DNA of 64,000 bases from Candidatus Bathyarchaeia archaeon (GCA_049512935.1 JBEKWR010000003.1:1-64000), one strand, 5' to 3'; shown: positions 35,859 through 52,014, counted from the first letter of the stretch. Numbers and translations: made by a program. Notes: a model not told the origin generated them from the sequence alone.

Positions 35859-36578
35859 TTGGGTGCTCCTGTGACTAACGCGTTGTACCTTGTTGACAGT
35901 TACCTTAAAGAAGCCGACGCAAAAGTGGTCTCAGTCAAAGACGGCAAATACGTGGTTTTAGACCGAACAATCTTCTACCCGAATGGGGGCGGACAACCGT
36001 TTGACTGTGGAAAAATCGTTAGGGCTGGTGAAGATTTTGGCGTGGTCTACGTCGGCAAGTTTTCAGGAGAGATTTCCCACGAAGTCGACCATGTGGGTCT
36101 CCAACCAGGCGACAAGGTTCACTTGGTTTTGAACTGGGATAGAAGATACAAGCTTATGCGCAGCCACACTGCCGCCCATGTTGTTGCTTCACTGCTCAAT
36201 CAGGGCACAGGTGCTCTTATCACGGGCAACCAGCTTGACGTGGAACATATTCGATTTGACTTCAGCTTGGAAACGTTTGACCGACAAGTCTTGGAAGAAT
36301 ACCTGAAGAAGGCTAACAAGCTATTCGGCACCGACGTGCCTGTGAAATGGTATGAATTGCCCAGAGAGGAGGCGATGAAGATTCCCGGCGTTGTCAAGAT
36401 GGCAGGCGCGTTTCCACCAGACATTCCATTGCTAAGAATCGTGGAAATCGTGGGCGTCGACAAACAAGCAGATGGAGGCACGCACGTTAGAAACCTAAGG
36501 GAAGTCGGGCAAGTTCAGCTTTTAAAGACAGAAAACAAGGGAAAGAACAACAGGCGCATCTACTTTAAGCTGAACTAA
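35859..36578 (+). CDS. alaX: Alanyl-tRNA editing protein AlaX-M
   Basis: FYPNGGGQP, MRSHTAAH, DGGTHV, KGKNNRRI. Confidence 0.92.
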   Translation: MGAPVTNALYLVDSYLKEADAKVVSVKDGKYVVLDRTIFYPNGGGQPFDCGKIVRAGEDFGVVYVGKFSGEISHEVDHVGLQPGDKVHLVLNWDRRYKLMRSHTAAHVVASLLNQGTGALITGNQLDVEHIRFDFSLETFDRQVLEEYLKKANKLFGTDVPVKWYELPREEAMKIPGVVKMAGAFPPDIPLLRIVEIVGVDKQADGGTHVRNLREVGQVQLLKTENKGKNNRRIYFKLN

Positions 36579-36614: not shown

Positions 36615-38099
36615 CTAAGGTGATACTTCGTCGAGTCTTTTGTTGGCTGTTTTCGGTCCGAACTGGGCGATGATTGCGGAGATTATCTGGAACATCGATA
36701 TAATCACGAACAGTATGAGAATCGACTCAACCGAGCCAGATTTCAGAGTTGTAAGTAATGCTCCGACTATTATGAGTCCGATGCCTCCGCCTAGATGTCC
36801 CAAGCCGTCTGCCATCGCGAATCCAGTTGCTCTTGCACGCGTCGGGAAGCTTTCAGTGACCCACGTGTAAGTTATCGGAACAAAGAAGTCCATGCCGATG
36901 AAGATTAGCAATGCGCCTATGGATGCGAGTGCCAGGTTGCTGACGCCGAAGGCGATTAGTATGCCGCCTACGAATGTGATGGCCGCGGAAATGGGTAGCC
37001 ACCTTTTTCGTTCCATTTTGTCTCCGAGGAAAGAAGCCATGACACCTGCCACGACGAATCCGAAGATGCCTAGCGCGACGACCATGCCGTTTTCGGGGAA
37101 GCCAAATCCTGCGCCTGCAAGAATCGATGACAGGCCTGCCGCGTTAATGTAGACGGTCATGTATCCGAAGAACCACACGAAAAACAGCAGGATTGTTCGG
37201 TTGCGGTACATTTTGTTTTTGAGTATTTCCGTGTATGGAACTGGCTGTGGCTTCTGAACGATTGGAATTGACTCGGGTAAGGGTGGCAGCTCTTCCATAG
37301 ATTCCAAGGCGCGTGCTTCCATTTCCGACACAATTCTGTCGGCTTCTTTGGGACGACCATGCGTTATGAGCCAACGCGTTGACTCGGGCAAACCAAACCT
37401 GAGTAGCACGCCTACCAGCGCGAGGACGCCGCCTATCCCGTACATTACTCGCCAGCCGTTTGTGGCTAAGAATGTTCCAGCGTTCGCAAGCGCAAATGGA
37501 AGACCGTTGGGAAACGCGGTGGCCGGCGTAGTTAATATGAGGCCAACCCAAACCGCTAGAACGGTTCCGATTCCGGCTAGGACGAATAGGAAGGATGTGT
37601 ATTTTGCTCTGCCGTTCTTAGGAGCTACTTCATTAATGTACGAGTTGACGATGGCGAGGTCAGCACCAACACCTATGCCAGTAACGAATCTTGCCAGAGC
37701 GAATTCCCAATAATTTGTGACGACCGCGTTGAAAAGGGAGCCAATTCCCGTTATCAAAAGAGTTACTATTAGCATTTCTCTTCTTCCGAACCTGTCGGAA
37801 AATGGGCTGAGCGCCAAAGCGCCGATCACGTAGCCGATGAGATTCAAAAGAACAACTAACCCCTCAAGGCTTGTCACTGCTGAAGAAGTAGGCGACGTCA
37901 CCCAGCCAAGCGTCATGGCGGTCTGAATGAAAGACACGTTGATGTTGAAAATATCGAAGAAGATAAAGATGTATCCTATTCCCAGTATGCCCATGAAAAG
38001 GTAAGAGAGCGCCCAGATGGGAATCCTGTCTTGCCGCGCGATTATTTTTGCGCCGTCTATTTCTTCTTGAGTAGGCGCATTAGGCAATGCGTCAGCCAT
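36615..38099 (-). CDS. MFS transporter (aromatic acid/sugar type)
   Basis: SDRFGRR, GIGVGAD, EVAPKNGR, PESTRWL, ESFPTRAR. Confidence 0.9.
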   Translation of the reverse strand: MADALPNAPTQEEIDGAKIIARQDRIPIWALSYLFMGILGIGYIFIFFDIFNINVSFIQTAMTLGWVTSPTSSAVTSLEGLVVLLNLIGYVIGALALSPFSDRFGRREMLIVTLLITGIGSLFNAVVTNYWEFALARFVTGIGVGADLAIVNSYINEVAPKNGRAKYTSFLFVLAGIGTVLAVWVGLILTTPATAFPNGLPFALANAGTFLATNGWRVMYGIGGVLALVGVLLRFGLPESTRWLITHGRPKEADRIVSEMEARALESMEELPPLPESIPIVQKPQPVPYTEILKNKMYRNRTILLFFVWFFGYMTVYINAAGLSSILAGAGFGFPENGMVVALGIFGFVVAGVMASFLGDKMERKRWLPISAAITFVGGILIAFGVSNLALASIGALLIFIGMDFFVPITYTWVTESFPTRARATGFAMADGLGHLGGGIGLIIVGALLTTLKSGSVESILILFVIISMFQIISAIIAQFGPKTANKRLDEVSP

Positions 38100-38354
38100 T
38101 TAGCTTGCCCCTCCAGACGATGCGGTTAGGCGATTCTTGTTCGAAAGTAGCGGAAAAGCAACCTGTTGGGCTAAGCCATCCCTGCTCGGATAGTTTATTT
38201 GATACAACATGATTCCAAAATTATTGTATTAATCAATATATAAGATTAACCCATTGACAGGTGTCTAGGCTAGACAGCGCATGATTAATTCGAGCGAGAT
38301 TTAGCAGCTGGGCTGATTTTCTTGAATTTGCCATCGACGTAGAATTCACGGTTT

Positions 38355-39362
38355 TTAGATCCAGCCTTTTCTTCGGAAGACGCTGATCAGCCCTACTGCA
38401 ATGCTGATCATCACCGCAATCATGACCCAGAACCCGTCTATGCTGTTGCTTCCAGGCAGGAAGAATCCGCGTCCAAAGTCGGTTCCGTAAATGCCCGCTA
38501 TCAACGTTAGCGGTAGAAATATGGCTGAAATGATGGTGAGTACCCTGATTATGTTGTTGGTTGTCAACGTTTGAGCGTTAATGATGATGTCGACGATGTC
38601 TTGGATTTCTTCACGGTGAGTATCTACAACCTCGATCAGCGAGATTATTCTGTCGTATAGGTCTTCAAAGCGCGGCAGGGTGACGCTTGAAACAATGGCA
38701 AACTCGCCCCTCGCAGCTCTTCCCACAACCTCGCGGAGCGGCCCAATTGACTGCCTAAGAGCTAACACTTGCTCTCTCGACTTAGCAACTTCCAACCCGA
38801 GAGACCTGTTGGAATCCTTTGGTCTTTGCCTAAAGCGGCTTCCAGCTTCCTGGCTTAAACCCACAAGTTTTTCATGAACCAAGTCGGAAACCAAGAAGCA
38901 CTCGTTCAGAATTAAATCCAGAAAGATGTAAAGTAAAATGTCAGTGGAAGGCGTTAGAGAAAGGGCAAAGTAGCCGTGGGTGCTGATTTTCTTGTAGATT
39001 TCGCAGGTTATGTTAGAATGCCCCTTGTGAACCGAGACCATCCACCTGTCGCTGACCATTAAGGCAACCCATTTTGCTTTTGTTTCTGTAATGAATTGTT
39101 CGCTGCTGGGGAAACTGACAAAACAAGAGACGCGGTCTTCAATTTCCTCTATCTTTGATCGTAAGCCAGCTTCATCGAAGTCCTTTAGGTTGAAGTTTTC
39201 CAACGGAAAGTAACCTTTTAACTGTGCGATTTCAGCTTCGGTAGGGTCTTCAGCGTCAACCCAGAGGATAGAGTCTTCGCTGATTCTACTGGGCAGGGTT
39301 TCCAAGTTGTCTGAGCGCCATTGCCCGCCTTCGAACTTCCTAAGCTGAGTGACGGTTAACAC
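38355..39362 (-). CDS. corA: CorA-family divalent cation transporter
   Basis: LTIISAIFLPLTLIAGIYG with two C-terminal TMs; GTD in place of GMN. Confidence 0.85.
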   Translation of the reverse strand: MLTVTQLRKFEGGQWRSDNLETLPSRISEDSILWVDAEDPTEAEIAQLKGYFPLENFNLKDFDEAGLRSKIEEIEDRVSCFVSFPSSEQFITETKAKWVALMVSDRWMVSVHKGHSNITCEIYKKISTHGYFALSLTPSTDILLYIFLDLILNECFLVSDLVHEKLVGLSQEAGSRFRQRPKDSNRSLGLEVAKSREQVLALRQSIGPLREVVGRAARGEFAIVSSVTLPRFEDLYDRIISLIEVVDTHREEIQDIVDIIINAQTLTTNNIIRVLTIISAIFLPLTLIAGIYGTDFGRGFFLPGSNSIDGFWVMIAVMISIAVGLISVFRRKGWI

Positions 39363-39659
39363 TTTTCGTCTGTTGCTCCGTTTAATATTCTGGGGAACTT
39401 GTTTCTAAACTTATTCAGTGCTGTCCGCTTATTTTAAGAAATTGCCACGGTTCCAACCCGGCTTGACATCTTCACCTTGTGAACACCTATGGGCGGCATC
39501 AAAGATTTTGAAAGCCACCGATGTGTTCATCCCAGTTAAAATGAAGAGAGAAATTAGATTTGGGTTTGTTTTGGGAAAAATGGGTTAAGTAGGAGCGGTA
39601 GGGTTTATCTGTTAAGTGAGGATTAGCATGGCAGGAATCGGAACTGGAGGCAAGTAGGG

Positions 39660-41249
39660 CTGGCTGGCAAAGCTAATGAAATCGCTAAGGTTTCTGCAAG
39701 GGGTGGTTTTCACCTCTTCTGGGGCATTGTCTTATCGACCGTTGTCTTAGCGGTCGGCATGATTGTTTTAGCCAGAATCCTTCAGCCGCAGCAGTACGGT
39801 TTGTACACGATTGCGTTGGCAGCGCCAAACTTGATTGGCACGTTCCGCGATTGGGCCATGAACTCAGCCATGATCAAGTACTCTGCGCAGTACAGCGCTG
39901 AGGAAAAACCAGAGCGGGTGCGAAGCATTCTCATGGCAGGTTTAATTTTTGAGCTAATTTTAGGTCTGACGCTTACTTTTGTGTCGTTTCTGCTTTCAGG
40001 TTTCATTGCGGAAGACATTTTTAAGAGACCCATAACCGCCTTGATTCAAATATCGTCAATCAGCATATTGGCGAATGCTTTCCTGAACGCCGCTACAGCG
40101 ACTTTTACAGGCAGAGAACAGATGAAACCCAACAGCTTCACGCTCGTGTTGGGCGCTCTGTTTCGCTCGATTTTATGTCCAGTGCTCGTGTACGTGGGTT
40201 TCGGCGTTTCAGGCGCCGTTGTAGGTTACGCGGCGGGCAGTCTTGGCGGAGGCTTAGTTGGTTTCATCTTAATGATGGCTATCTATCGAAGCCTAAGGCA
40301 GAAGCCGGGTTTGGCGGAAAACTTGAAAATTTGGGAAACTATGAAGTTCATGTTCCGATATGCCCTGCCTCTGTCTTTCTCCAGCATCTTCAACAGTTTC
40401 CTCATTCAGTTTTACAATTTTATAATAGCCATCTACGCCTCAAACTTCCTCATAGGCAACTACGCTGTGGCTAACAACTTCACCGTTCTGCTCACTTTTT
40501 TTGCGACGCCCATAACAACCATGCTTTTTCCCGCCTTCTCAAAGCTGGACGCTCAACATGACAGAGAGACGTTGCAGATTATTTTTAAAAGTTCAATAAA
40601 GTATTCTTCGCTGCTTGTGATTCCTCCAACCGTGGCTGTAATGGCTTTGGCTCACCCCTTGGTTTCCGCTCTGTTCGGCGACAAGTACGCGTCCGCTCCC
40701 ATGTTTCTTGCCCTGCTCGCCATCAATTATCTGTTTACTGCTTTCGGACAGTTAAGCACGCTGAACCTTATCAGCGGTCAAGGGAAAACGAGGTTTTACT
40801 TTGAGCTCTTTGTCATTAACACGGCGTGGGGGATTGTCTTGGCGGTTCTGCTTGTTCCAACCTTCGGTGTGGTGGGGCTGATTATAACAACTATTTTCGA
40901 CGGGGTTCCAGGGCTCGCCATATCCCTTGAGTGGATCAAGAGGAATTACGGCGCGAGCGTGGATTGGGTTTCCTCAGCGAAGATACTGTTTTCCTCTTCC
41001 ATGTCGGGAGTAGTAACGTATGTCTTCCTTTCATTCGTGAGTTTAAGCAGTTGGCCCAAGTTAATACTTGGAGTTATAGTCTTTTTCGTGCTGCTGTTTT
41101 TAAGCCTGGTCTCTACCCGAACGTTTAGAAAACCCGACGTCGACAACCTCCGAACCATGACCAGCGGCTTGGGCCCGATAAGCGGCATAATCAACAAGGT
41201 TCTAGACGCTGTGGAAAGACTCGTGAACATATTGCTCTCAATTGCTTAG
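39660..41249 (+). CDS. Second oligosaccharide flippase paralog
   Basis: Frame extends to CTG 39660 (GGAGG upstream) and restores AKVSARGGF.L.WG as in 10260..11870. Confidence 0.8.
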   Translation: MAGKANEIAKVSARGGFHLFWGIVLSTVVLAVGMIVLARILQPQQYGLYTIALAAPNLIGTFRDWAMNSAMIKYSAQYSAEEKPERVRSILMAGLIFELILGLTLTFVSFLLSGFIAEDIFKRPITALIQISSISILANAFLNAATATFTGREQMKPNSFTLVLGALFRSILCPVLVYVGFGVSGAVVGYAAGSLGGGLVGFILMMAIYRSLRQKPGLAENLKIWETMKFMFRYALPLSFSSIFNSFLIQFYNFIIAIYASNFLIGNYAVANNFTVLLTFFATPITTMLFPAFSKLDAQHDRETLQIIFKSSIKYSSLLVIPPTVAVMALAHPLVSALFGDKYASAPMFLALLAINYLFTAFGQLSTLNLISGQGKTRFYFELFVINTAWGIVLAVLLVPTFGVVGLIITTIFDGVPGLAISLEWIKRNYGASVDWVSSAKILFSSSMSGVVTYVFLSFVSLSSWPKLILGVIVFFVLLFLSLVSTRTFRKPDVDNLRTMTSGLGPISGIINKVLDAVERLVNILLSIA

Positions 41250-41333
41250 CTCGGAGGTCAAGGACTTTTGGCAAAATGGTTTCTGCTGGTTCCGTTAGAA
41301 TTGCATCTGGTCAAATGGTGTTTCGAAGTTTTG

Positions 41334-41963
41334 TCACTGAATTATTGTTACCTGTACTGGTGCTGTTTGAAATCCGTAAGTTGGGCTGCTTTCGCCGACG
41401 ATGAAGTATGTTCCCGGTGGCACTTGTGTGGCTTCTGTTGACGTTGAGATGTTGCTTGTCTGCGGCCAAACGTATGTTGCGGTTACGTTTTCACCGGGCT
41501 TTAGAGAAATTAATGTGACAAACTGGGGGAAGGCTTTGCCGATGGACCATATGTAGATGATGCTGTTTGAATCATTGTAGACAAGGAAGTTAAAGTCCAT
41601 TCCGGTATGCGTGAAGCTTACGGTCTGATCGCTGACGTTCGTAATAGTCAACGTCACGTTAACTGGTTCCCCAACGTTGTAGACGGTTTTTTCAAGAGAC
41701 AAAGTGAGCTCAAGGCTTTCGTTGCCAGTTTTCGTTGGCGCGGGGGTCGAGGTGGGAGTCTGCGTTGGAACAGGAGACGGCGAATTTGTGGCTGTTGGAA
41801 TCGGCGTTATAGGCGACGGACTTGTCTCCGACAAGTTTTCGGGAACGTTTGATTCTACTGTCCTGCTTGGCTGGAGCTTTGTTAACGCGAAACCTAAAGC
41901 GACACCGCTTAGTATAACGATCACGACTGCAATTGCCAGAAGCTTCAATTTATTAGGTGCCAT
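41334..41963 (-). CDS. Membrane-anchored protein with Pro/Thr/Ser linker and Ig-like (BsuPI-like) domain
   Basis: N-terminal TM, TPSP-rich linker, KTVYNVGEPVNVTLTITN...WSIGKAF. Confidence 0.7.
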   Translation of the reverse strand: MAPNKLKLLAIAVVIVILSGVALGFALTKLQPSRTVESNVPENLSETSPSPITPIPTATNSPSPVPTQTPTSTPAPTKTGNESLELTLSLEKTVYNVGEPVNVTLTITNVSDQTVSFTHTGMDFNFLVYNDSNSIIYIWSIGKAFPQFVTLISLKPGENVTATYVWPQTSNISTSTEATQVPPGTYFIVGESSPTYGFQTAPVQVTIIQ

Positions 41964-42034: not shown

Positions 42035-42078
42035 GCTGAGGCTGGCAATTGAACCCATATGTGACCGCTCTGCAGGCT
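42035..42078 (-). repeat. Degenerate tRNA-Cys 3' fragment (att-like copy 5)
   Basis: 38/44 identical to 46789-46832 by manual alignment. Confidence 0.8.
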
Positions 42079-42089
42079 ATCTATTGTGC

Positions 42090-42300
42090 TTACCTCTGGC
42101 TATTCACAAGCGCACCGCTGGAGAGAGTTTCAACGCCCATGTTTTCTGCAGCTTTAGCAAAATTTGTTGTCGTCGGTGACCAAGGTTTTGTTGTTTTTCT
42201 TTGCCTCTGCAAGGTAAGCAGAGTCATAAAATGTCAAGTTAAATTTGTGCGCTGTGTCCAGTATTTCGTTTCCTTTTTCATTACTCAGCAGGGCTACCTG
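42090..42300 (-). pseudogene. Truncated, frameshifted PIN/VapC toxin
   Basis: EILDTAHKFNLTFYDSAYL..LVTDD, then continues in another frame as AKAAENMGVETLS; no N-terminus. Confidence 0.75.
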
Positions 42301-42326
42301 CATGCGTGCATCTGACAGAGAAAGCA

Positions 42327-42686
42327 CTAGTTTTTTCCGTGGCACAGAGGGGTAAGAACCTTGGTGAGTTGCTCGTATTTTGGGATCTTACCTTCGATGG
42401 TTTCAAACCTACATCTTTCCTTCCCGTCTTGGAAGACAAGTATGAAAGGCGTTTGCAGTCCGTTCAGTTTGGCGTTTCCGATGTACTTCTTCAGCTGGGC
42501 GTTTCTTTCTTGCAGGACTGCCTCGCAGATCTCCACCTCGGGAAACTGCTTATGCACTTGGGGGAGGACATTTTCCTTAAAATCGGCGCAGTGGGAGCAA
42601 CTTCTGAGGGTTACGACAAGGAGTGCGATTTTTTTCTGGTTGATGAATGCATCGTAATTCGCACTTGTTATTTGCTTAAGCTCCAT
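42327..42686 (-). CDS. Thioredoxin-fold protein
   Basis: CSHC motif, TP cis-proline, VFQDGKE. Confidence 0.8.
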   Translation of the reverse strand: MELKQITSANYDAFINQKKIALLVVTLRSCSHCADFKENVLPQVHKQFPEVEICEAVLQERNAQLKKYIGNAKLNGLQTPFILVFQDGKERCRFETIEGKIPKYEQLTKVLTPLCHGKN

Positions 42687-42764
42687 ACTCTTATTCGCTT
42701 CGAGGGGGTTATTTAGACTATTCGTTCACTAAGAGAGTTTCTACCGCTTTGTGCTAAGGAGATA

Positions 42765-42864
42765 TGGAGTTGGGGATGGGCTTTTGAGTTGAGGTGCGAT
42801 TCCCTTCCCCGCTTAGGGTACAAAGAAGCGGCTTGCATTTTCATTACATTCGGCACCCCAGATC
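42765..42864 (-). repeat. tRNA-Cys-derived relic retaining both ends (att-like copy 4)
   Basis: 42765-42780 matches tRNA 3' end 15/16; 42847-42864 CATTCGGCACCCCAGATC matches the 5' end with two 1-nt gaps. Confidence 0.65.
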
Positions 42865-42994
42865 GATAATCCTGTTTATAGAATAAGCCTCAGACTTAGT
42901 GCTGGCGTACACTTCGTTGGCAATCAACATGTCAAGAAAAGATTTAGATAGCAGTATTCAGTTAGCGCATTTGTGAAACGAAAGAAGGGGTAAA

Positions 42995-44377
42995 TTGCTC
43001 AGTAAGGTTAGTTTCACAAAATTGATAATTGAAGTCTTCCCCATCTTCATCATTCTAATTGGAGTTGCATTCGTTTCATTTTCACTGGGGCCATATCAAA
43101 CTTATGACACGCAACTGGAATTCGAAGCTGCGTCAAACGTGGTTAAAATGGGTATTCCCTTTGTGAAGGGTTTTGGTACAGTGATTGATCAGCCGCCGTT
43201 AGGATTCTACATTGAAGGGTTATTCTTTAGAATTTTTGGTTTGTCAATTAACACAGGTGTAACCTTAGTGACTCTTTTTGGGCTTGGATCTGTTGCCTTA
43301 GTATATATGATTGGAAAGCAATTGTACGGCAAAGCAACAGGACTTCTCGCAGCCGCTCTTTTCGGTTTGAACCCGTGGCAACTTGTTCTCTCAAGAAGCT
43401 TCCTTATTGATTCTCAATGCCTTTTCTTCAGCCTGCTCTGTTTGTACGTGGGCATTTTTGCTATCAACAGAAGTTCAGTTAAGCTCAGTTTGGTTGCAGG
43501 AGTGGTTTTTGCCGCTGCTATCCTAACAAAGTTTTTTGCTGCTTTCGTACTCATCCCACTGCTCTTATTCTACATTTATTCACGACCGAAAAAAACAAAG
43601 CAGATACTTGGCCAATTAGCGGCATTTTCAATACCAGCGTTCGTGTCTGCGCTTTTCTGGTATCAAATTTTCCTTGGTCGTTCGCTGCTTTCAATTTTTA
43701 ATAACAATAATATCGTCGTAATTCCCGCAAGTACTCACGTGGTTCCTTCTCCGTTTTTTGTAATCAATTTTCTTGTACATTATGGGGTGGGATGGTACTT
43801 TCTGGTTGCAACAGTTTTCTCCTTGATTTTGGTTCTGTCGCTTAAAAATTATTTTTCTAAAGTAATTATTGTTGATTTAGTATGCGTGGCGACAATTGCT
43901 TTTATTTTAAGCGTTAATGTTGTTATGGGCGCAGTTTTCAAGCTTAATGTGCCATATTTTAGCGCCATTAAATATGATTACCAAGCTTTGCCATTTCTTG
44001 TTTTATTAGTAGCGTCGTTAACAACAAAGAGCCTCGCAGCGTTTAGAGCAGCAAAATCAACTGTGCATCTGAAAAAACTTATGTTTTATTTGGCTGCTAT
44101 AGCAGCGGTGATACTGCTTGCTGCATCGTTGATTTCAAGCATGTTTTACACAAATGCGGTTTCCACACTCAGTTACCTGCAGTACAGAGTGGAGCCGCAA
44201 GTTAATTACGGATATGCACTCTCGACCCCTAACCCGTTAACGGCTAGCAGCCCGTTAATGGCGCTTCAATATTTGGGCTTCGCAGTTGCGTTATCTGGAC
44301 TTTTGTTTGGACTATTTTGCGTGACTAGGCATAAGATTCGGTGGTTATTCAAGCGAGAAAACGCTCAAAAGGCTTAA
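42995..44377 (+). CDS. GT-C fold glycosyltransferase (ArnT/PMT_2-like)
   Basis: DQPPLG, multi-TM, SRSFLID, LTKF. Confidence 0.8.
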   Translation: MLSKVSFTKLIIEVFPIFIILIGVAFVSFSLGPYQTYDTQLEFEAASNVVKMGIPFVKGFGTVIDQPPLGFYIEGLFFRIFGLSINTGVTLVTLFGLGSVALVYMIGKQLYGKATGLLAAALFGLNPWQLVLSRSFLIDSQCLFFSLLCLYVGIFAINRSSVKLSLVAGVVFAAAILTKFFAAFVLIPLLLFYIYSRPKKTKQILGQLAAFSIPAFVSALFWYQIFLGRSLLSIFNNNNIVVIPASTHVVPSPFFVINFLVHYGVGWYFLVATVFSLILVLSLKNYFSKVIIVDLVCVATIAFILSVNVVMGAVFKLNVPYFSAIKYDYQALPFLVLLVASLTTKSLAAFRAAKSTVHLKKLMFYLAAIAAVILLAASLISSMFYTNAVSTLSYLQYRVEPQVNYGYALSTPNPLTASSPLMALQYLGFAVALSGLLFGLFCVTRHKIRWLFKRENAQKA

Positions 44378-44510
44378 TCTATATTTTAAAATAAGTTACT
44401 CAGCGGCAGACCTTAACCCTTGAAAAGTCATAGTCACCGCTCTCTCTAAAATCCAAGCGTAAGCATGACCAGAGCACGTAATGAAAAACTAAGGCACCAA
44501 AGCTGGACTA

Positions 44511-44542
44511 TGAAGCTGGGGGGAATGGGAATTGAACCCATA
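44511..44542 (-). repeat. Degenerate tRNA-Cys 3' fragment (att-like copy 3)
   Basis: TGAAGCTGGGGGGAATGGGAATTGAACCCATA vs tRNA TGGAGCTGGGGATGGGAATTGAACCCATA. Confidence 0.8.
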
Positions 44543-44560
44543 ACCGTCAAGGATGCGAGT

Positions 44561-44956
44561 CTATTTAATGTCGTCTAACGTGGAAACGTTTGCCACTGTT
44601 GTTATTTTTTTGATTAGCCGCAGGTCTTCCGTTATCAGTTTTAGTTCTTTTGCCTTAGCAAAATAAACGTATGAAGCGTCATAAAAAGTAATTTTTAGCT
44701 TGATTGCAGTATCTAATATTTCCTCTTCGCTGTCGGTTATTTCTATTACATTCATTATGTTTAAGGTGTGCTTGATTGACTTTGCCAGCATTTTTGCTTC
44801 TTGCTCTGAAACCTTTGCTTGTAAGGCATAATCTTTCCATATGATGTTTCCCAGTTCGTATCTCGCTAGTTCTAATGTGTAGTTTCCAGTCAAAAAATCA
44901 ATTTTGTTTTCTTTAATTGCTCTAAATATGGCTGATGAATCAAAAAGACACTTCAT
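44561..44956 (-). CDS. vapC: PIN-domain toxin VapC
   Basis: LFDSSA, YELGNIIWK, ITFYDASY, LITED. Confidence 0.9.
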   Translation of the reverse strand: MKCLFDSSAIFRAIKENKIDFLTGNYTLELARYELGNIIWKDYALQAKVSEQEAKMLAKSIKHTLNIMNVIEITDSEEEILDTAIKLKITFYDASYVYFAKAKELKLITEDLRLIKKITTVANVSTLDDIK

Positions 44957-45183
44957 CGGCTATCACGGTCTTCTCTTATGCTTTTCACTACATCTTCAAC
45001 GCTGATTTTCTCAAGTATCGGCTTTAGCCTCTCTATCTCTTCTTTTAGCTCTTCTACCTCTCTTTTTTTCACTTCATCTTCAAGGGCTTTTCGCAGAATC
45101 TTAGACGGCTTGATTTTGAACTTCTGAATTTTTTCTTTGAGTTGCTTGGGGATTTTTGTAGAAACTGTACATTGCTGCACCAT
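44953..45183 (-). CDS. vapB: Antitoxin VapB (RHH/CcdA-like)
   Basis: TVSTKIPKQLKEK...LRKALEDEV...VKSIREDRD; 4-bp overlap with vapC; palindrome TACTTTAAAGTA at 45203-45214. Confidence 0.85.
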   Translation of the reverse strand: MVQQCTVSTKIPKQLKEKIQKFKIKPSKILRKALEDEVKKREVEELKEEIERLKPILEKISVEDVVKSIREDRDSR

Positions 45184-45258
45184 TATTCTCACCACAAATT
45201 ACTACTTTAAAGTAAGATAAAACAGTTTCCGTAATATGCATAGAAAAAAAGTAACGTA

Positions 45259-45281
45259 TGGAGCTGGGGATGGGAATTGAA
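45259..45281 (-). repeat. tRNA-Cys 3' fragment (att-like copy 2)
   Basis: 23 bp identical to 46785-46807. Confidence 0.85.
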
Positions 45282-45746
45282 ACAGGTTTTTTTATGCCTT
45301 CTATAGATTAGCAAACCCGCGCTTATGCCAATAACTAATGCCGCCGTTAAAGCAATAGCCGTGATTACTGGAGTTAAAACTAGTTTGGCTAACGGGCGCA
45401 AGATGCACGATTATTTTTATTTAACCGCTTGCATTAGAGCATGCTGCCTGTGAAGATAAACACGTCAGTCGGAGAAAGGATTGGTAGTCCTATCGATGAT
45501 GTCAGTTAACGAATTCTGAGGCACACGAAAACAATAAACAAAGAGCGCCTTGACTTGATCAGCAATTCACAGAAAATTGAAAGCCGAATGAATCAGATTC
45601 TCTGTGAGAAACTCGGTTAAGAATGTTGTATAAACTGGTAATGCCATGGATGGTCCAATCCTCGAATTCTCTTAATAAATGTCTCAGAAGTGCATTCCCC
45701 TAATATGCTGTCTAAGTTAGAGTTGAAACTCGATGTTTGCAGACGT

Positions 45747-45791
45747 TGGAGCTGGGGATGGGAATTGAACCCATATATAACAGCTCTGCAG
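45747..45791 (-). repeat. tRNA-Cys 3' half (att-like copy 1)
   Basis: 45 bp identical to 46785-46829, ending in the anticodon loop. Confidence 0.93.
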
Positions 45792-45858
45792 ACGCTACAA
45801 TAAAACAAGAGAGATTAGCATATACGCAGGTGTTAACAACAAATATCCCAGAGCTCGG

Positions 45859-46344
45859 ATGAACATGAAACCCGTACGGCAAGTTTATCTTGATACAAAT
45901 ATTTACTGTCGCCCGCTGGATGATCAAAAAGATAGACGCATCAATGCCGAAACCCAAGCCTTGCTGAAAATTGTTGATGCGAATGAAAAAGGAGAAATAG
46001 CGATAATAAGCTCGGAATATGTGAAGTTTGAAATCGAGAAAGTAAAATACCCGCTAAAAAGGAAAAATATCCGAGGCTTCGAGAAAATCCTAAGCAAAGC
46101 CAACGTAACTAGCAGTAAAAGACTAATCACACTAGCCAAAGAAATCAACGCGAAATGCAACCTCAATTCCTTAGACGCCCTCCACTTGGCAGCAGCCTGC
46201 ACAGGCAAAGCAAATTTTTTTCTAACCTGCGATGATGAAATTTTAAACGACAGAAATTGTATTGAAACATTAGTGGCAAATAAAGGGTATGAGTTAAAAG
46301 TTAGGAATCCAATAAATTATATAAGAGAACATGAGGAAGAGTGA
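45859..46344 (+). CDS. PIN-domain protein
   Basis: VYLDTNIYCRPLDDQ, LDALHLAAA, FLTCDD, VRNP. Confidence 0.88.
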   Translation: MNMKPVRQVYLDTNIYCRPLDDQKDRRINAETQALLKIVDANEKGEIAIISSEYVKFEIEKVKYPLKRKNIRGFEKILSKANVTSSKRLITLAKEINAKCNLNSLDALHLAAACTGKANFFLTCDDEILNDRNCIETLVANKGYELKVRNPINYIREHEEE

Positions 46345-46573
46345 CATAAGAATGACTACGTCGCATATAGCCACTGTGGAAGTCCCCTTTGAAGCCCTAG
46401 CCAAAGAGCTTGGAACAAAAAGAGCAATAGAGTTCATCAGCGAAATAAAAGAGTGCTATGGCGACTCTGTTGTTGAATTAAGAAAAGCCACCGAAACACT
46501 TACCATTGAACAAATAGAAGAAGAAATAAAAAAATCTAAAAAAGCAAAAATCGATAATTTTGAAAAAGAGTAA
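46331..46573 (+). CDS. Putative antitoxin downstream of the PIN gene
   Basis: EALAKELG...A.EFI...GD pattern; overlaps the PIN gene end. Confidence 0.65.
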   Translation: MRKSDIRMTTSHIATVEVPFEALAKELGTKRAIEFISEIKECYGDSVVELRKATETLTIEQIEEEIKKSKKAKIDNFEKE

Positions 46574-46784
46574 CTTACCACTTTAAATTTTGTTGTTAGT
46601 AGTCAAGAAATTTTTAGCGAATTTCTGACCTCTTACTTCCAATTTCCTGCCCTAAAAACGCTCTGTACAAATAAAATTTTAATTGCTTTATTATTTATGT
46701 TCAATGAAGCATTCCTCAGCAAAACGTTTGTCACGCAAAAAATGAAAGCTGCCCAAAGAGTTTGAAGCTCCAAACTTTATGCAG

Positions 46785-46860
46785 TGGAGCTGGGGATGGG
46801 AATTGAACCCATATATAACAGCTCTGCAGGCTGTCGCCTGAACCATTCGGCCACCCCAGC
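46785..46860 (-). tRNA. tRNA-Cys(GCA), intronless, CCA encoded
   Basis: Cloverleaf: GCTGGGG/CCCCAGC, ACAGC-CTGCAGA-GCTGT, ATGGG-TTCAATT-CCCAT, U73, CCA. Confidence 0.96.
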
Positions 46861-46952: not shown

Positions 46953-47315
46953 CTATTTCTTGAACGCTAACCCTGAGAAGAGCGCCACCATCTTTTCTCC
47001 GCTCTTCACCGTGACCTGGTAGAGACCCGTCGTTTTTCCGTCGGAAACCCGCGTTGCCTCCGCCACTAAAACGTCGCCTTCAACCGACGGTCTCAAGTAG
47101 TTGATGCTTACCTGTACCGCGACTGCGACGTTGTCGCCGTAGTTGCATGCGTGTGCGAAGGCGTAGTCCGCCAGCGAGAAGACTGCGCCGCCGTGCGTGA
47201 AGCCAAGCGCGTTGGTGTGGTTTTTCTCAACTTTCATGCATACCCGTGCGTAGCCGTCTCTGGATTCTTCAAGGTGAATGCCGAGTGCTTCTGCAAAATG
47301 GTCTTTTCCCTTCAT
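46953..47315 (-). CDS. paaI: PaaI-family hotdog thioesterase
   Basis: NALGFTHGGAVFSLADYAF, INYLRP. Confidence 0.88.
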   Translation of the reverse strand: MKGKDHFAEALGIHLEESRDGYARVCMKVEKNHTNALGFTHGGAVFSLADYAFAHACNYGDNVAVAVQVSINYLRPSVEGDVLVAEATRVSDGKTTGLYQVTVKSGEKMVALFSGLAFKK

Positions 47316-47732
47316 GCCTGTGCGCCCATGAACCGTGCATATAGCGCGTTACTCTAAATAAAACTAGCTGTGCACACGGCGGCTGCCTCCCTGTTCCCAG
47401 ACGTGCCTATCCAAGAAAAACGCGCTTGGACGCCTGTATTTGGGTCCTGCAGATGCGCCCAAAAGGCGTTTTGTGCAGAATTGCCCGTTTTTCCTTGAAG
47501 AGTCAGCTGCAAAAAACCATGAATTAAGCCCTAAAGCTAAAAAGCAGTCTGAAACAAGCCCTGATTGTACGAGAAAGTGGAGGGAAACAGGTATCAATGG
47601 GTTTATACCTGAAAAATTGGCTGAAAGTTTGTTTTTCGCGTCGGAGAACACGGATTTGATCTGCTTGGTTTAGGCTCTAAACCAAAAAAGCAACATGAAT
47701 CAAGCCCTGACCTACCAGATAGGGAGGGGGGA

Positions 47733-47761
47733 GGGGGTCTAGTATTTGTGACCAAAAACCA
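47733..47761 (+). repeat. Dispersed G-tract intergenic repeat, copy 2
   Basis: Identical 29-mer to 31789-31817. Confidence 0.85.
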
Positions 47762-47902
47762 ACACAAAAAAGACGTATGTTGACTCTCAGCTTAATTAAA
47801 CCCATTATTGCGACCCTATAGGGTAGGCTACTATTTGTGACAAAATTCCATCACAAAAAGCGCTTCAACCACCGGCATCCTACGACAAAACCGCAGCCCA
47901 AA

Positions 47903-48493: not shown

Positions 48494-50682
48494 TTCTCCC
48501 GCCTCCTTATCGCTTGGGAGGGACAGACGACGTCGCAGACGCCGCATCCACTGCACAATGTCGCATCAACCTCAACATGACCGCTAGCCTTAGAAATGGC
48601 TGGGCAACCGAACGCTTTGATGCAGACCTCGCAATCGTTACATTTCTCCGTGACCTCTCTCGGCTCGCCCCTCTCAATCAGAAGCGGGCAAGGCCTCTTC
48701 GAAATAACAACTGAAGGACCCCTGTAATCAAAAATCTTCCTAAGAGCAGCGATCGTGCCCTCAACGTCATACGGGTCAACAACCTCAACCCTGTCTATCC
48801 CAAGACCCCTAGCAACATCCTCAAGCTTCAAAATCTTAGAATCCAAGCCCATAGCCGTCTTCCCCGACCCAGGCGTCGGCTGATGCCCAGTCATCGCCAC
48901 TGTGCTGTTATCCAGAATGACCACGCACACGTCAGCCCTGTTGTACACGATGTTCATCAGCCCAGGCATTCCCGCATGGAAAAACGTTGAGTCCCCGATA
49001 ACCGCGAACACTTTATCCTTCACGCCAGCATGAACCATCCCCGCAGCCTGCGAAATCCCCGCCCCCATGCACAGGCAGGTTTGAACCGCGTTGACAGGCG
49101 GCAGAACACCCAGCGTGTAGCAACCGATGTCGCCCGTCACGATCTTGTCGCTTGAATTCCCCGCCAAGCTCAAAGCTCCCTCAGGGCAGAAACCGACACA
49201 TTTCGGGTCACCACCGCACATGTCGCAAATCATGGCTTTATGCGTGCCAGGATTCACCGTGATTGCCCCGTACTCGCAGGCTTCAATGCACCAAGGGCAA
49301 CCCTTGCACTTCTCATCGTCAACCAGCAGCGCACCAGTTTCAGGTGATCGCCCTATTGCTTTTTCAGGACAAGCCTTGATGCACGCGGCGTCAACGCAGG
49401 CTTTGCAAGTTATCGCCGTGTTGAAAGTCTGACCGATCCTCACCGACCGTATTCGAGATTTAAGCGGGTTGAAGACTCTCTCTTTCTCAAAAGAGCAAGC
49501 GTACTCGCAGATGCTGCAGCCCACGCATTTATCGTTGTCACAGCTAACATGCTGATTAACCATGTTCAACGCATAGTAAAACGCCCTGTGGGGACAGCCT
49601 GGACAAAGCGTCGGCGGCCTCGGCTGCAAATCCAAAACCTCCGGTGCCTCCGCCTTGTCAGCCAATCTTAAACTTGCGAAGGCTTGGCGTACTTTATCGG
49701 GCGTTAACTCGCCAATTTCCTCCAAACCCAGCTCGTTCTTTCCCAGGAACTGCAAACCTAACCCGCGGATGTTCTCCTCCAAATAAGGCCTCAGCTCCTC
49801 AACTACTATGAGCTTCTTAACTTTGAGCGCAAATCTTTCAACAATTTCCTTAGGAAAAGGATAAACAAGACCCAGCTTCAACCAAGAAAACTTTTTCGTA
49901 TCAAGCACCGATCGAGCATAGTAGTAACCAACACCGCTTCCTACAATTCCAATCTCGCTCGCATTGTCTTCAATCACGTTAAACTTCGAATGATTGACAA
50001 GCGTCTTTGCCTCTGCCATCTTTACCTCCAAAACTCTACGCTGCCGAATAGCGTTTGCCGGCACCATCACCCATTTTGAACCTTGCTTATCAAAATCGGC
50101 CTTGCGACTCAAGTTGTGCATCCGCCCGAGTTTCACCCTGGCTTTCCCATGAGCCACCCGCGTCGTCAAACGCAATATGACCGGCAAGTGCAGTTTTTCA
50201 CTTAATTCAAACGCCTCTCTAGCCATATCCAAGGCTTCCTGAGGGTTACCTGCATCCAGCAAAGGCAACTTCGAATGAACCGCAAAGTATCTTGTATCCT
50301 GCTCATTTTGGCTGCTATGCAATGACGGGTCGTCGCACACGGCGATAACCATTCCACCCTCGATGCCCGTGTACGCCAACGTCATAGCAGCGTCAGCAGC
50401 AACATTTAACCCAACATGCTTCATAGAAACAATAGAGCGAACCCCCGCCATCGAAGCACCCGCAGCCACCTCCGTCGCAACAACCTCGTTGGTGCTCCAT
50501 TCGGCGTAAACGCCAAATTCTTTTGAAACCTCGGCGAGCGTTTCCAAAATTTCAGTGGCAGGTGTTCCAGGGTAGGAAGCTGCGACCTTGACGGTTGCTT
50601 CAATCGCGCCTCGCGCCACTGCCTCATCGCCGTTAAGCAAAGCAAAGAAGCCTGGCTTATCTGCCGCAATTTTGGAAGTCAT
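48490..50682 (-). CDS. iorA: Indolepyruvate:ferredoxin oxidoreductase alpha subunit with internal ferredoxin insert
   Basis: YPGTP, MKHVGLNVAAD, SSQNEQD, CPGCPHR, GDIGCY, GDSTFFH, AMTGHQ. Confidence 0.93.
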   Translation of the reverse strand: MTSKIAADKPGFFALLNGDEAVARGAIEATVKVAASYPGTPATEILETLAEVSKEFGVYAEWSTNEVVATEVAAGASMAGVRSIVSMKHVGLNVAADAAMTLAYTGIEGGMVIAVCDDPSLHSSQNEQDTRYFAVHSKLPLLDAGNPQEALDMAREAFELSEKLHLPVILRLTTRVAHGKARVKLGRMHNLSRKADFDKQGSKWVMVPANAIRQRRVLEVKMAEAKTLVNHSKFNVIEDNASEIGIVGSGVGYYYARSVLDTKKFSWLKLGLVYPFPKEIVERFALKVKKLIVVEELRPYLEENIRGLGLQFLGKNELGLEEIGELTPDKVRQAFASLRLADKAEAPEVLDLQPRPPTLCPGCPHRAFYYALNMVNQHVSCDNDKCVGCSICEYACSFEKERVFNPLKSRIRSVRIGQTFNTAITCKACVDAACIKACPEKAIGRSPETGALLVDDEKCKGCPWCIEACEYGAITVNPGTHKAMICDMCGGDPKCVGFCPEGALSLAGNSSDKIVTGDIGCYTLGVLPPVNAVQTCLCMGAGISQAAGMVHAGVKDKVFAVIGDSTFFHAGMPGLMNIVYNRADVCVVILDNSTVAMTGHQPTPGSGKTAMGLDSKILKLEDVARGLGIDRVEVVDPYDVEGTIAALRKIFDYRGPSVVISKRPCPLLIERGEPREVTEKCNDCEVCIKAFGCPAISKASGHVEVDATLCSGCGVCDVVCPSQAIRRREK

Positions 50683-50694
50683 AGGTTTTGTCCT

Positions 50695-52014
50695 TTACAT
50701 TTTGCCCTTGCGTAAGTCCAGTACTCTTTTCGCTTTTCCTTCGGTTCTCGGAAGCTCGCCCGGTTTAACGATTTCTACGTCGGCATTTATGCCCGTTACG
50801 ATTTGGATTTGTTTTCCTATTCCCTTTTTCAGCGCTTCCTTGTCCATTTTCGGGTCCTTGGCGGCTTTCTCAGACAATTCAACCTTGACCGCAAACGTGT
50901 CTAATGCTCCTGGTCTATCGACCACAATCAGGTATTGAGTAGCAAGCTCCGAGAAGCACATGACCGCAAATTCCACCTGTGATGGGAACACGTTTACTCC
51001 GCGAATAATCAGCATGTCGTCTGATCTGCCGTGAATCCGCATCATTCTGGCATGGGTACGTCCGCAGGCGCATTTTTCCGTTTCTATTTTGGAGATGTCG
51101 CGGGTTCTGTACCTCAGCATCGGAAGCCCCATCTTCGTTAAGCCTGTGAATACTAATTCGCCTTCTTCGCCTGCAGGCAAAACCTCGCCTGTTTCAGAGT
51201 CGATTGTTTCAACGATGAAATGGTCTTCCCAAACGTGCAGTCCCTTATGCTCTGGGCATTCGACGGCGACTCCTGGACCGCAAAGCTCGGTTAACCCGTA
51301 AACGTCAAAAGCCTTAATCCCTAAATCCGCCTCTATTCTTTCCCGAATCTTGTCAGACCATGGTTCCGCCCCAAACATCCCTATTTTGAGTTTAAGGTCT
51401 TTTCTTGGGTCAACACCTTCCTGAACCATGGTTTCCCCAAGATAAACCGCGAAACTTGGAGTGCAAGCCAGAATCGTCACGCCTAAATCCTTCATGAGCT
51501 TGATTTGTCGCTGGGTCATTCCGCCGCTTGCTGGTACAATTTTGGCTCCGACTTTTTGGGCGCCGTAATGGAAACCGAAGCCGCCTGTGAATAAGCCGTA
51601 GCCGTATGCGATGTGTATTGTGTCTTGTTGTCTTCCGCCTGCGGTGTAGATTGATCGTGCCATAAGCTCTTGCCAAACGTCGATGTCATGCTGGGTGTAG
51701 GCTCCGACTATCGGGTTCCCAGTTGTGCCGCTTGAGGCGTGAATCTCCACGATTTCGTCGGGTTTGGCGGCAAGCATCCCGAAGGGGTAATTCTCTTTCA
51801 AATCATTCTTGACGGTGAACGGGATCTTTTTGAGGTCGTTGAGTGTGCGGATGGTTTCGGGTTTTACGTTTGCAGCGTCAAGTTTCTTCTTGTAAAACGC
51901 GCTGTTCTCGTAACAATGCTTTACCATTGTTTTCAACAATTTGAGTTGAAGGTTTTTCAGTTCTTTTTGAGGCATTGTTTCGATTTTTTGGTTCCAGTAT
52001 GTTCCGTCTGCCAT
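50695..52014 (-). CDS. paaK: Phenylacetate-CoA ligase
   Basis: HASSGTTG, YGYGLFTGG, GAEPW, RYRTRD, RGVNVFP. Confidence 0.93.
   Translation of the reverse strand: MADGTYWNQKIETMPQKELKNLQLKLLKTMVKHCYENSAFYKKKLDAANVKPETIRTLNDLKKIPFTVKNDLKENYPFGMLAAKPDEIVEIHASSGTTGNPIVGAYTQHDIDVWQELMARSIYTAGGRQQDTIHIAYGYGLFTGGFGFHYGAQKVGAKIVPASGGMTQRQIKLMKDLGVTILACTPSFAVYLGETMVQEGVDPRKDLKLKIGMFGAEPWSDKIRERIEADLGIKAFDVYGLTELCGPGVAVECPEHKGLHVWEDHFIVETIDSETGEVLPAGEEGELVFTGLTKMGLPMLRYRTRDISKIETEKCACGRTHARMMRIHGRSDDMLIIRGVNVFPSQVEFAVMCFSELATQYLIVVDRPGALDTFAVKVELSEKAAKDPKMDKEALKKGIGKQIQIVTGINADVEIVKPGELPRTEGKAKRVLDLRKGKM

Follow-up and report, generated by a model that had tools for sequence, protein, structure and literature searches.

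A tandem array of small, integrase-less segments bounded by tRNA-Cys fragments in a Candidatus Bathyarchaeia genome, most likely built by tRNA-targeted integration

Cis-mobilisable elements (CIMEs) of Streptococcus thermophilus are units bounded by attachment (att) sites that carry no recombination or transfer genes; they lie in tandem with integrase-bearing elements using the same site and take part in accretion-mobilisation with integrative and conjugative elements (ICEs). Rows of cassettes also make up integron arrays and clusters of attC sites lacking integron integrases (CALINs), and the Vibrio superintegron includes toxin–antitoxin (TA) cassettes. SSV-type integrases and gene capture were reportedly treated by She and colleagues in 2001. 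For archaea, published accounts, as far as the cited portions of them go, describe arrays of integrative elements at one site, with a smallest cryptic element of 2.6 kb that carries an integrase (PMC6563490); integrase-less integrated elements, attributed to loss after integration, and tandem integration (PMC8371274); remnants at tRNA genes, with the proposal that vapBC pairs keep local DNA in place (PMC3119797); tRNA fragments left behind by 9-23-kb elements (PMC9897764); and SSV-type ("suicidal") integrases with gene capture at tRNA genes (PMC7253208). In the openly accessible literature that we searched, we found no description of units that consist of TA genes only and have tRNA fragments as their boundaries. 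Here, we describe a row of five segments behind a tRNA-Cys gene that are bounded by fragments of that gene and free of integrase genes. The row lies in a 64-kb stretch (positions 1-64000 of the 175-kb contig C3, hereafter the window) of a Candidatus Bathyarchaeia archaeon metagenome-assembled genome (MAG), which we label G000 (2.30 Mb, 49 contigs, 93% complete); other G numbers denote its relatives. Judging from its repeats and its counterparts in these relatives, the array most likely arose through ordinary site-specific integration in tandem, targeted to the tRNA.

The intact tRNA-Cys(GCA) gene is the sole tRNA gene that ARAGORN detected in the window, and an Rfam scan of the window returned, beyond it, sub-threshold matches only. 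On its 3' side lie five copies of its 3' part, every one oriented like the tRNA, and these delimit the segments c1 to c5, counted outward from tRNA-Cys:

46785..46860, minus strand: intact tRNA-Cys(GCA), the docking site (ARAGORN; Rfam 64.2 bits)
45792..46784, unstranded: c1, 993 bp, PIN toxin gene and overlapping putative antitoxin gene
45747..45791, minus strand: copy 1, exact, tRNA positions 32-76 (anticodon loop to CCA), 45/45
45282..45746, unstranded: c2, 465 bp, no credible protein gene, conserved C/D-box-like small RNA (sRNA)
45259..45281, minus strand: copy 2, exact, tRNA positions 54-76 (T loop to CCA), 23/23
44543..45258, minus strand: c3, 716 bp, VapB-like antitoxin and PIN-like toxin, the pair called VapBC2
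44511..44542, minus strand: copy 3, degenerate, tRNA positions 48-76, one mismatch and a 3-nt insertion
42781..44510, unstranded: c4, 1730 bp, GT-C glycosyltransferase
42765..42780, minus strand: copy 4, tRNA positions 61-76, 15/16
42082..42764, minus strand: c5, 683 bp, remnant of a third TA cassette family
42035..42081, minus strand: copy 5, degenerate, tRNA positions 26-72, 40/47, without CCA

The tRNA-Cys 23-mer (up to three mismatches) has three matches in the window compared with 0.00 expected from 100 shuffles, and no match elsewhere in the 2.30-Mb genome. Repeat quality drops with distance from tRNA-Cys. Copy 3 derives from a 55-nt fragment, still kept in the relative G097, via a 118-nt deletion between short repeats; copy 4, being 16 nt long, is weak evidence by itself; and copy 5 is probably the displaced original 3' end of the tRNA. 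From copy 5 outward to the gene AlaX, we found no additional tRNA-Cys fragment scoring at least 13, except for chance-level matches to the 5' part. The G+C content is 0.38–0.40 across 43–47 kb compared with 0.45–0.56 on either side. A preliminary description of the window had reported tRNA-Cys with five same-orientation 3' copies, of which two were exact, at 45 and 23 nt, and three were degenerate, around segments of about 1.0, 0.5, 0.75, 1.7 and 0.7 kb. ARAGORN and alignment confirm the copies, and the measured sizes listed above agree with the estimates.

In G000, CCA is part of the encoded sequence both of the tRNA-Cys gene (46785-46790) and of all its near copies. In a relative with an empty site (G019), in the outermost fragment of G016 and in many members of the genus, TTT or CTT replaces it. 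The CCA apparently arrives with the inserted DNA, and because the empty-site tRNA-Cys of G019 has no encoded CCA, the 3' part of the G000 gene, including its CCA, was presumably contributed by the newest cassette.

The genes within the segments lie on both strands:

45859-46344, plus strand: PIN toxin gene of c1 (Pfam PIN 31.2 bits, above cut-off)
46331-46573, plus strand: putative antitoxin gene of c1, 80 aa, overlapping the PIN gene, no family
about 45445-45523, plus strand: C/D-box-like sRNA of c2 (conservation across relatives)
44953-45195, minus strand: VapB-like antitoxin of c3 (NCBIfam 37.5 bits, below cut-off)
44561-44956, minus strand: PIN-like toxin of c3 (PIN 19.9 bits, below cut-off)
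42995-44377, plus strand: GT-C (PMT_2) glycosyltransferase of c4 (PMT_2 73 bits)
42327-42686, minus strand: weak thioredoxin-like gene of c5
42154-42345, minus strand: C-terminal piece of a PIN gene of c5, 63 aa

By their predicted products, c1 and c3 fit the layout of type II TA (VapBC) modules, namely, a PIN gene with an adjacent, overlapping small antitoxin gene. The c5 segment is a broken TA cassette in which the PIN gene was kept in part. The PIN pair, the VapBC-like pair, the GT-C gene and the thioredoxin-like gene with its PIN piece thus stand as first described, whereas the "gene stub" seen in c2 gives way to the sRNA. This sRNA has a terminal stem and C, D', C' and D boxes, with a TATA-like TTTATTTAA about 25 nt upstream; its core is unchanged in four species and its flanks vary. 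About 130 nt of it match at 85–93% in dozens of genomes of the genus, and the best Rfam match, snoU61, reaches just 22 bits (E 0.26). A tRNA-Cys fragment follows 110–130 nt after the sRNA in G000, G097, G016 and G009. Alignment identifies c2 as a deletion derivative of a 1.6-kb unit of G097 (cC, below), of which it is short by about 1.3 kb. The description of the segments as tiny cassettes suits c1 and c3, which are unit-like; some of the others are decayed or composite: c2 is such a derivative, copy 3 was reshaped by its 118-nt deletion, c5 is broken and c4 is unbounded elsewhere.

In agreement with the preliminary description, no tyrosine integrase was found in or beside the array: a PF00589 profile search of the whole of contig C3 gave no match. 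Furthermore, tblastn with the integrase that targets tRNA-Cys in relatives (the Cys branch, below) gave no match in the array, and no integrase remnant abuts tRNA-Cys or any of the five copies.

Could the array have grown by serial, oriented addition of DNA at the tRNA, with breakpoints at the tRNA fragments? The tRNA-Cys gene was present in all 24 same-genus genomes first searched, and two genes mark the conserved DNA around the array:

46953..47315, minus strand: 4HBT thioesterase gene, start of the conserved chromosomal flank 5' of the tRNA (4HBT, IorB, IorA), from a profile match and relatives' loci
35859-36578: AlaX gene, ancestral flank

4HBT lies on the 5' side of tRNA-Cys in 16 of 18 relatives' loci, followed by IorB and IorA where fetched. 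The 3' side holds unrelated genes in each relative, and neither c1 nor the GT-C or thioredoxin-like gene lies there in any of the 18 loci. An empty site is present in G019, in which the ancestral flank directly follows tRNA-Cys, and an occupied one in G016, in which a 10.3-kb insert is closed by a fragment and the flank beyond aligns with the G019 flank, a classical attR. In G003, a 1.6-kb ApbA segment on the tRNA-Cys side is followed by a fragment and then by AlaX, and homology to the window ends at the AlaX stop codon. Since AlaX follows the tRNA fragment in G003 and sits at 35859-36578 here, the DNA from 36.6 to 46.8 kb is therefore variable.

The relative G097 has a homologous layout. Its tRNA-Cys is followed by fragments of 27, 44, 16 and 55 nt, and its units stand, from the tRNA outward, in this order:

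cA: 261-aa secreted protein; an extra tRNA-proximal unit compared with G000
cB: c1 homologue with a broken PIN gene
cC: 276-aa protein and C/D-box-like sRNA; 1.6 kb
cD: c3 homologue

The extra unit next to the tRNA is what addition at the tRNA predicts. For both c1 and c3, the alignments show that homology between the two genomes reaches the CCA end of the fragment and ends there. The c1 alignment with G097 spans 715 nt at 84.8% identity, rising to 96.7% in the 61 nt around the c1 fragment, and that of c2-c3 spans 1043 nt at 94.5%. Flanking core genes reach 76.6–77.8% (77.8% for IorA/B and 76.8% for 4HBT); across 17 relatives, the identity of IorA/B and 4HBT to G000 is 66–79%. With cassettes at 85–95% and the core at about 77%, the cassettes therefore appear to have been exchanged after the species split, at different times. 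The proposal of serial addition made in the preliminary description is thus borne out by the decay of the repeats with distance, the extra proximal unit of G097, the empty site and the attR, and its expectation about breakpoints by the G097 alignments, in which they coincide with the 3' ends of the tRNA fragments.

The units recur in other settings across the genus. Homologues of VapBC2 (73–95%) are widespread, and 85 of 119 genomes match some part of 42079-45746. Among 16 fetched VapBC2 loci, a tRNA-Cys fragment lies within about 60 nt of the pair in eight, intact tRNA-Cys lies within 7 kb in none and tRNA-Leu(TAA) is near it in none; no VapBC2 relatives were found on viral contigs. In G100, the TA pair directly before VapBC2 is one that G000 has on contig C6, where it is flanked on both sides by fragments of the window-type tRNA-Cys. 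In G016 and G009, the sRNA unit stands next to different neighbours. G098 has an intact c5-type PIN pair with fragments at its boundaries; in G020, a related antitoxin and PIN pair (62% aa identity for PIN) forms the end of a fragment-bounded segment of 6.4 kb; and a c5-type copy in G108 has a fragment on one side only.

Contig C6 also holds two further tRNA-Cys(GCA) genes, 75% identical to that of the window, and two 95%-identical 84-nt genes called tRNA-SeC by ARAGORN (coordinates for the extra tRNA-Cys genes, the TA pair and the tRNA-SeC calls: 36095-36169, 39655-39729, 44016-45054 and 50388-51510).

An integrase of matching specificity does exist in the genus. The array of G002 contains a degraded integrase gene whose end lies immediately before a tRNA-Cys fragment, and G022 has an integrase gene with its end about 30 nt away from the tRNA-Cys 3' terminus. 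A search with the G002 piece found the family in 107 of the 119 other genomes of the genus, with up to 21 matches per genome and open frames of about 380–450 aa. In the 30 best loci, the gene converges on the tRNA 3' end wherever a tRNA was detected: 12 adjoin intact tRNA-Cys and 3 its fragment (60–83% identity to the query), 11 adjoin tRNA-Phe, Ala, Ser or Pro (56–61%), and in 4 no tRNA was detected. This pattern therefore ties each integrase branch to one tRNA species. Genes of the Cys branch end 30–45 nt outside the 3' end of tRNA-Cys and are not partitioned. The integrase has an N-terminal zinc ribbon and an XerA-like catalytic domain, and it scores 76 bits on the integron-integrase model compared with a cut-off of 265. 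Relatives at 42–45% occur on three IMG/VR contigs of 26–38 kb, two of them beside tRNA-Ser. On two such contigs (L198 and L199), the integrase is co-oriented with a tRNA-Ser(GCT) just past its stop codon, compared with the convergent chromosomal loci; contig C21 of G000 shares the co-oriented layout, there with tRNA-Val.

In G000 itself, the family has left a 32%-identical 140-aa fragment on C21 and two short remnants beside other tRNAs. The genome-wide search suggested in the preliminary description yielded one full-length tyrosine recombinase (511 aa, on contig C2) and two weak pieces. The 3' end of the C2 recombinase gene (C2:123052-124587) overlaps a 24-nt tRNA-Gln fragment, and a 4.6-kb integrase-less segment with TrmB and winged helix-turn-helix regulators lies between this gene and the intact tRNA-Gln(CTG).

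Large and small elements share the tRNA-Cys site in the genus. Spacings between same-strand tRNA-Cys 23-mers, worked by hand, fall, among the matches listed, into 16 of 0.5–3 kb, 9 of 3–10 kb and 7 of 12–42 kb, and those with an integrase next to the tRNA belong to the 12–42 kb class. Large and small elements stand in tandem in G077 (15.7 kb and 2.7 kb), G084 (29.6 kb and 1.2 kb) and G002. The cassette proteins gave no tblastn match in eight integrase-bearing tRNA-Cys loci (up to 20 kb each). In seven large integrase-bearing elements at tRNA-Cys, the distal ends carry small zinc-ribbon or unknown genes, once with a MazF gene 1 kb away, and no c1- or c3-type pair was found; large elements matching the array's segments, which the preliminary description had named as the mark of simple island decay, were looked for in these seven and none was seen.

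Similar arrays, for which the preliminary description had proposed a search, stand behind other tRNA genes of G000. When the 37 tRNAs called by ARAGORN were compared with the genome by BLAST (within 15 kb, at least 30 bits), we observed 18 downstream same-orientation fragments, distributed over 12 tRNA genes; the opposite strand had none, and the single upstream fragment was a duplicated tRNA-like gene. With an intron-bearing tRNA-Leu(TAA) that ARAGORN misses, 13 of 38 tRNA genes carry such repeats. The repeats mostly surround two-gene TA modules of about 0.7–1.0 kb:

Thr segment: ParE and DUF2683, within the 707-994 bp class
Gly-UCC segment: MazE and PIN, within the 707-994 bp class
Met segment: DUF433 and DUF5615, within the 707-994 bp class
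Leu-GAG segment: DUF4258 and DUF2283, within the 707-994 bp class
Leu-CAG segment: Asp_protease_2 and DUF5678, within the 707-994 bp class
C6 segment: UPF0175 and PIN-like, within the 707-994 bp class
C3:145440-145560, outside the window: intron-bearing tRNA-Leu(TAA), then a VapBC pair, then a 70-nt tRNA copy including part of the intron

The small segments hold intact two-gene modules, free of gene fragments, and leave 27–211 nt of spare DNA towards the tRNA. A nucleotidyltransferase and HEPN pair abuts a tRNA-Pro fragment. The VapBC pair at tRNA-Leu(TAA) is a paralogue of VapBC2 (72% nt) closed by a tRNA-Leu copy; a single TA family is therefore associated with sites of two tRNA species. Of 25 PIN genes, 7 are located at most 3 kb downstream of a tRNA, compared with about 5% expected.

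How might such an array arise? The 3' end of tRNA-Cys would serve as the attachment site for tRNA-specific tyrosine integrases, which are common in the genus. Each integration would swap the 3' part of the tRNA for the copy carried by the incoming DNA and push the previous 3' part downstream, leaving a row of direct repeats with the oldest farthest away. The units (0.5–1.7 kb, mostly two-gene TA modules) would be non-autonomous, the integrase being supplied by a co-resident large element or virus with the same tRNA specificity. Such a helper integrase would excise, move and re-insert the units, alone or joined to the helper (accretion-mobilisation), and after its loss the units would stay and slowly decay. 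Action in trans, circular intermediates and retention or stabilisation through the TA modules are what we infer from this arrangement. We favour, with modest confidence, this reading of the segments as integrase-less, att-bounded units moved by helper integrases in the manner of CIMEs. Extended to the whole genus, it would make bare TA pairs and a few small genes or RNAs with tRNA-derived att sites a class of integrase-less mini-elements, moved in trans by tRNA-specific zinc-ribbon integrases, shuffled between species and arrayed behind a third of the tRNA genes, an archaeal functional analogue of integron arrays. We put forward this broader idea tentatively, as a possibility that invites some doubt.

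The array might instead be what remains of large integrase-bearing elements or proviruses, of which TA pairs survive since their loss is harmful, with units that never moved without an integrase of their own. That the 12–42 kb elements exist beside tRNA-Cys, with the same integrase family on the three IMG/VR contigs, fits this view, as do the intermediate spacings of 3–10 kb, the degraded G002 integrase adjoining a fragment within an array and the usual reading of integrase-less integrated elements as products of loss after integration, in the cited portion of one account (PMC8371274). On the other hand, tRNA-Cys and its five copies have no integrase remnant beside them; the G000 segments cluster at 0.7–1.0 kb as intact pairs with little spare DNA; G097 shares the integrase-less unit and its boundary, at an identity above that of core genes; the seven large elements lack these modules; and VapBC paralogues are delimited by fragments of two tRNA species. 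We therefore hold simple decay, the main rival, to be rather unlikely as the whole explanation, and it and movement by helper integrases are not mutually exclusive. Several observations weigh against movement by helper integrases. The integrase remnants adjoining tRNAs in G000 (C21, C27 and C16) show that loss after integration occurs; the spacings form a continuum, as progressive deletion would also give; and c2, copy 3 and c5 carry deletions, a sign of decay inside the array. The order c1-c2-c3 is collinear with cB-cC-cD in G097, and block inheritance or block transfer instead of unit-wise moves is possible. In G117, a distance of 703 kb on one contig separates VapBC2 and its fragment from the intact tRNA-Cys, and in G013 and G106 the two are on different contigs; the fragments there have diverged as far as the genes and represent fossil sites. 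The GT-C homologues in G013 and G131 are bounded by no tRNA fragments, and c4 is therefore not established as a unit. No circle, deletion or empty-site forms were found among the low-depth assembled contigs of four runs, and all of our comparisons are between species-level MAGs.

A dedicated, integron-like platform would go further than helper integrases, with one host or trans-acting recombinase reading tRNA-shaped sites generally and shuffling cassettes among all tRNA genes. The 13 of 38 tRNA genes that carry such units, the TA family shared by Cys and Leu sites and the 511-aa C2 protein as the sole full-length tyrosine recombinase of G000 are compatible with it. We nevertheless consider it improbable, as the integrase branches are each tied to one tRNA species, no shared motif was found beside the att sites across 12 arrays, gene orientation is mixed, and the C2 recombinase adjoins its tRNA-Gln fragment like an ordinary element-borne integrase. 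Finally, could the array be an artefact of chance matches or of mis-assembly across repeated tRNA sequence? The genome is a MAG in 49 contigs, copy 4 has 16 nt only, and the two 45-nt junctions, longer than the short contigs of four other runs can resolve, are unbridged. However, the chance expectation for the repeats is 0, assembled contigs of those four runs span the junctions at copies 2–5 with no differences, and the homologous layout of G097 sits on a 249-kb contig; an artefact is, accordingly, extremely improbable. Loose contig ends, seen at 46788 and 42770, belong to other organisms and are suggestive at most. The runs that contain the stretch are peat and wetland metagenomes (n = 24).

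Beyond the array, the DNA between copy 5 and AlaX (36615-41963) encodes an MFS transporter, CorA, a polysaccharide flippase and a BsuPI-domain secreted protein. These genes are not at the corresponding place in G003, G016 and G019, and no recognisable repeat was found at the outer end of this block. On the other side of the tRNA, 47500-47900, between 4HBT and IorB, belongs to a dispersed intergenic repeat family with 58 more matches in G000, several of which adjoin tRNA genes or fragments (e.g., C1:48127-48524, C4:99316-99478 and C27:15180-15299); this repeat has a high multi-organism depth in other samples. Near copy 4, a piece at 42847-42861, about 65 nt away, resembles tRNA-Cys positions 2-17, and an inverted T-arm-like stretch lies between the two (42793-42813). 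About 70 nt of the 42765-42861 region match at 82–91% in several genomes, once directly after VapBC2 (G095). Copy 4 and the 42847-42861 piece may together represent a gutted tRNA-Cys pseudogene or a tRNA-like element.

The inserts at many tRNA genes are tiny and consist mostly of intact TA pairs; their boundaries are conserved across species, and their similarity exceeds that of the core genome. Mobilisation in trans, if real, would explain the spread and persistence of TA modules in archaeal chromosomes and would mean that genes also flow by a cassette-type route in an abundant uncultured lineage of soil and sediment; it would also offer a simple pair that could be tested at the bench, a 424-aa integrase and sites of 23–45 nt. 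For annotation, such arrays hide tRNA fragments, an intron-bearing tRNA and a small RNA.

Compared with the described systems, the array shares with archaeal tRNA-targeting elements (pNOB8-type, non-partitioning integrases) repeats that consist of the tRNA 3' part from the anticodon or T loop, a rebuilt tRNA, older elements displaced downstream and, in the relatives, an integrase beside the tRNA. It differs in that the units, 0.5–1.7 kb long, lack integrase and replication genes, consist for the most part of bare TA pairs and occur at a third of the tRNA genes; an integrase gene in each element, as expected of tRNA-targeted elements, is present in the large elements of the relatives and absent from the array. 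As with SSV-type integration, DNA is trapped at tRNA genes and leaves tRNA-fragment footprints, whereas here no int(N) or int(C) pieces abut the repeats and the genus integrase is unpartitioned and lies 30–45 nt outside the tRNA. With integron arrays and CALINs, it has in common rows of small, integrase-less, site-bounded units, addition next to an anchor, TA modules and variable order and content. The integron-like structure suggested in the preliminary description was not upheld: the array is not an integron, because its genes face both ways, the sites have no flanking motif in common and specificity differs from tRNA to tRNA. Moreover, it has no IntI, attI or common promoter (Pc), its genes have upstream regions of their own, and its sites are tRNA fragments and not attC hairpins (no attC model search was made). 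The CIMEs resemble it in being att-bounded, without recombination or transfer genes and in tandem with integrase elements (here in G077, G084 and G002), and differ from it in that the host here is archaeal, the units sit at a tRNA gene, they carry TA modules for the most part and their mobilisation is presumptive. Integration at tRNA genes and tandem islands are already known; the array stands out by how small its units are, by the absence of an integrase from them and by the TA modules that they carry.

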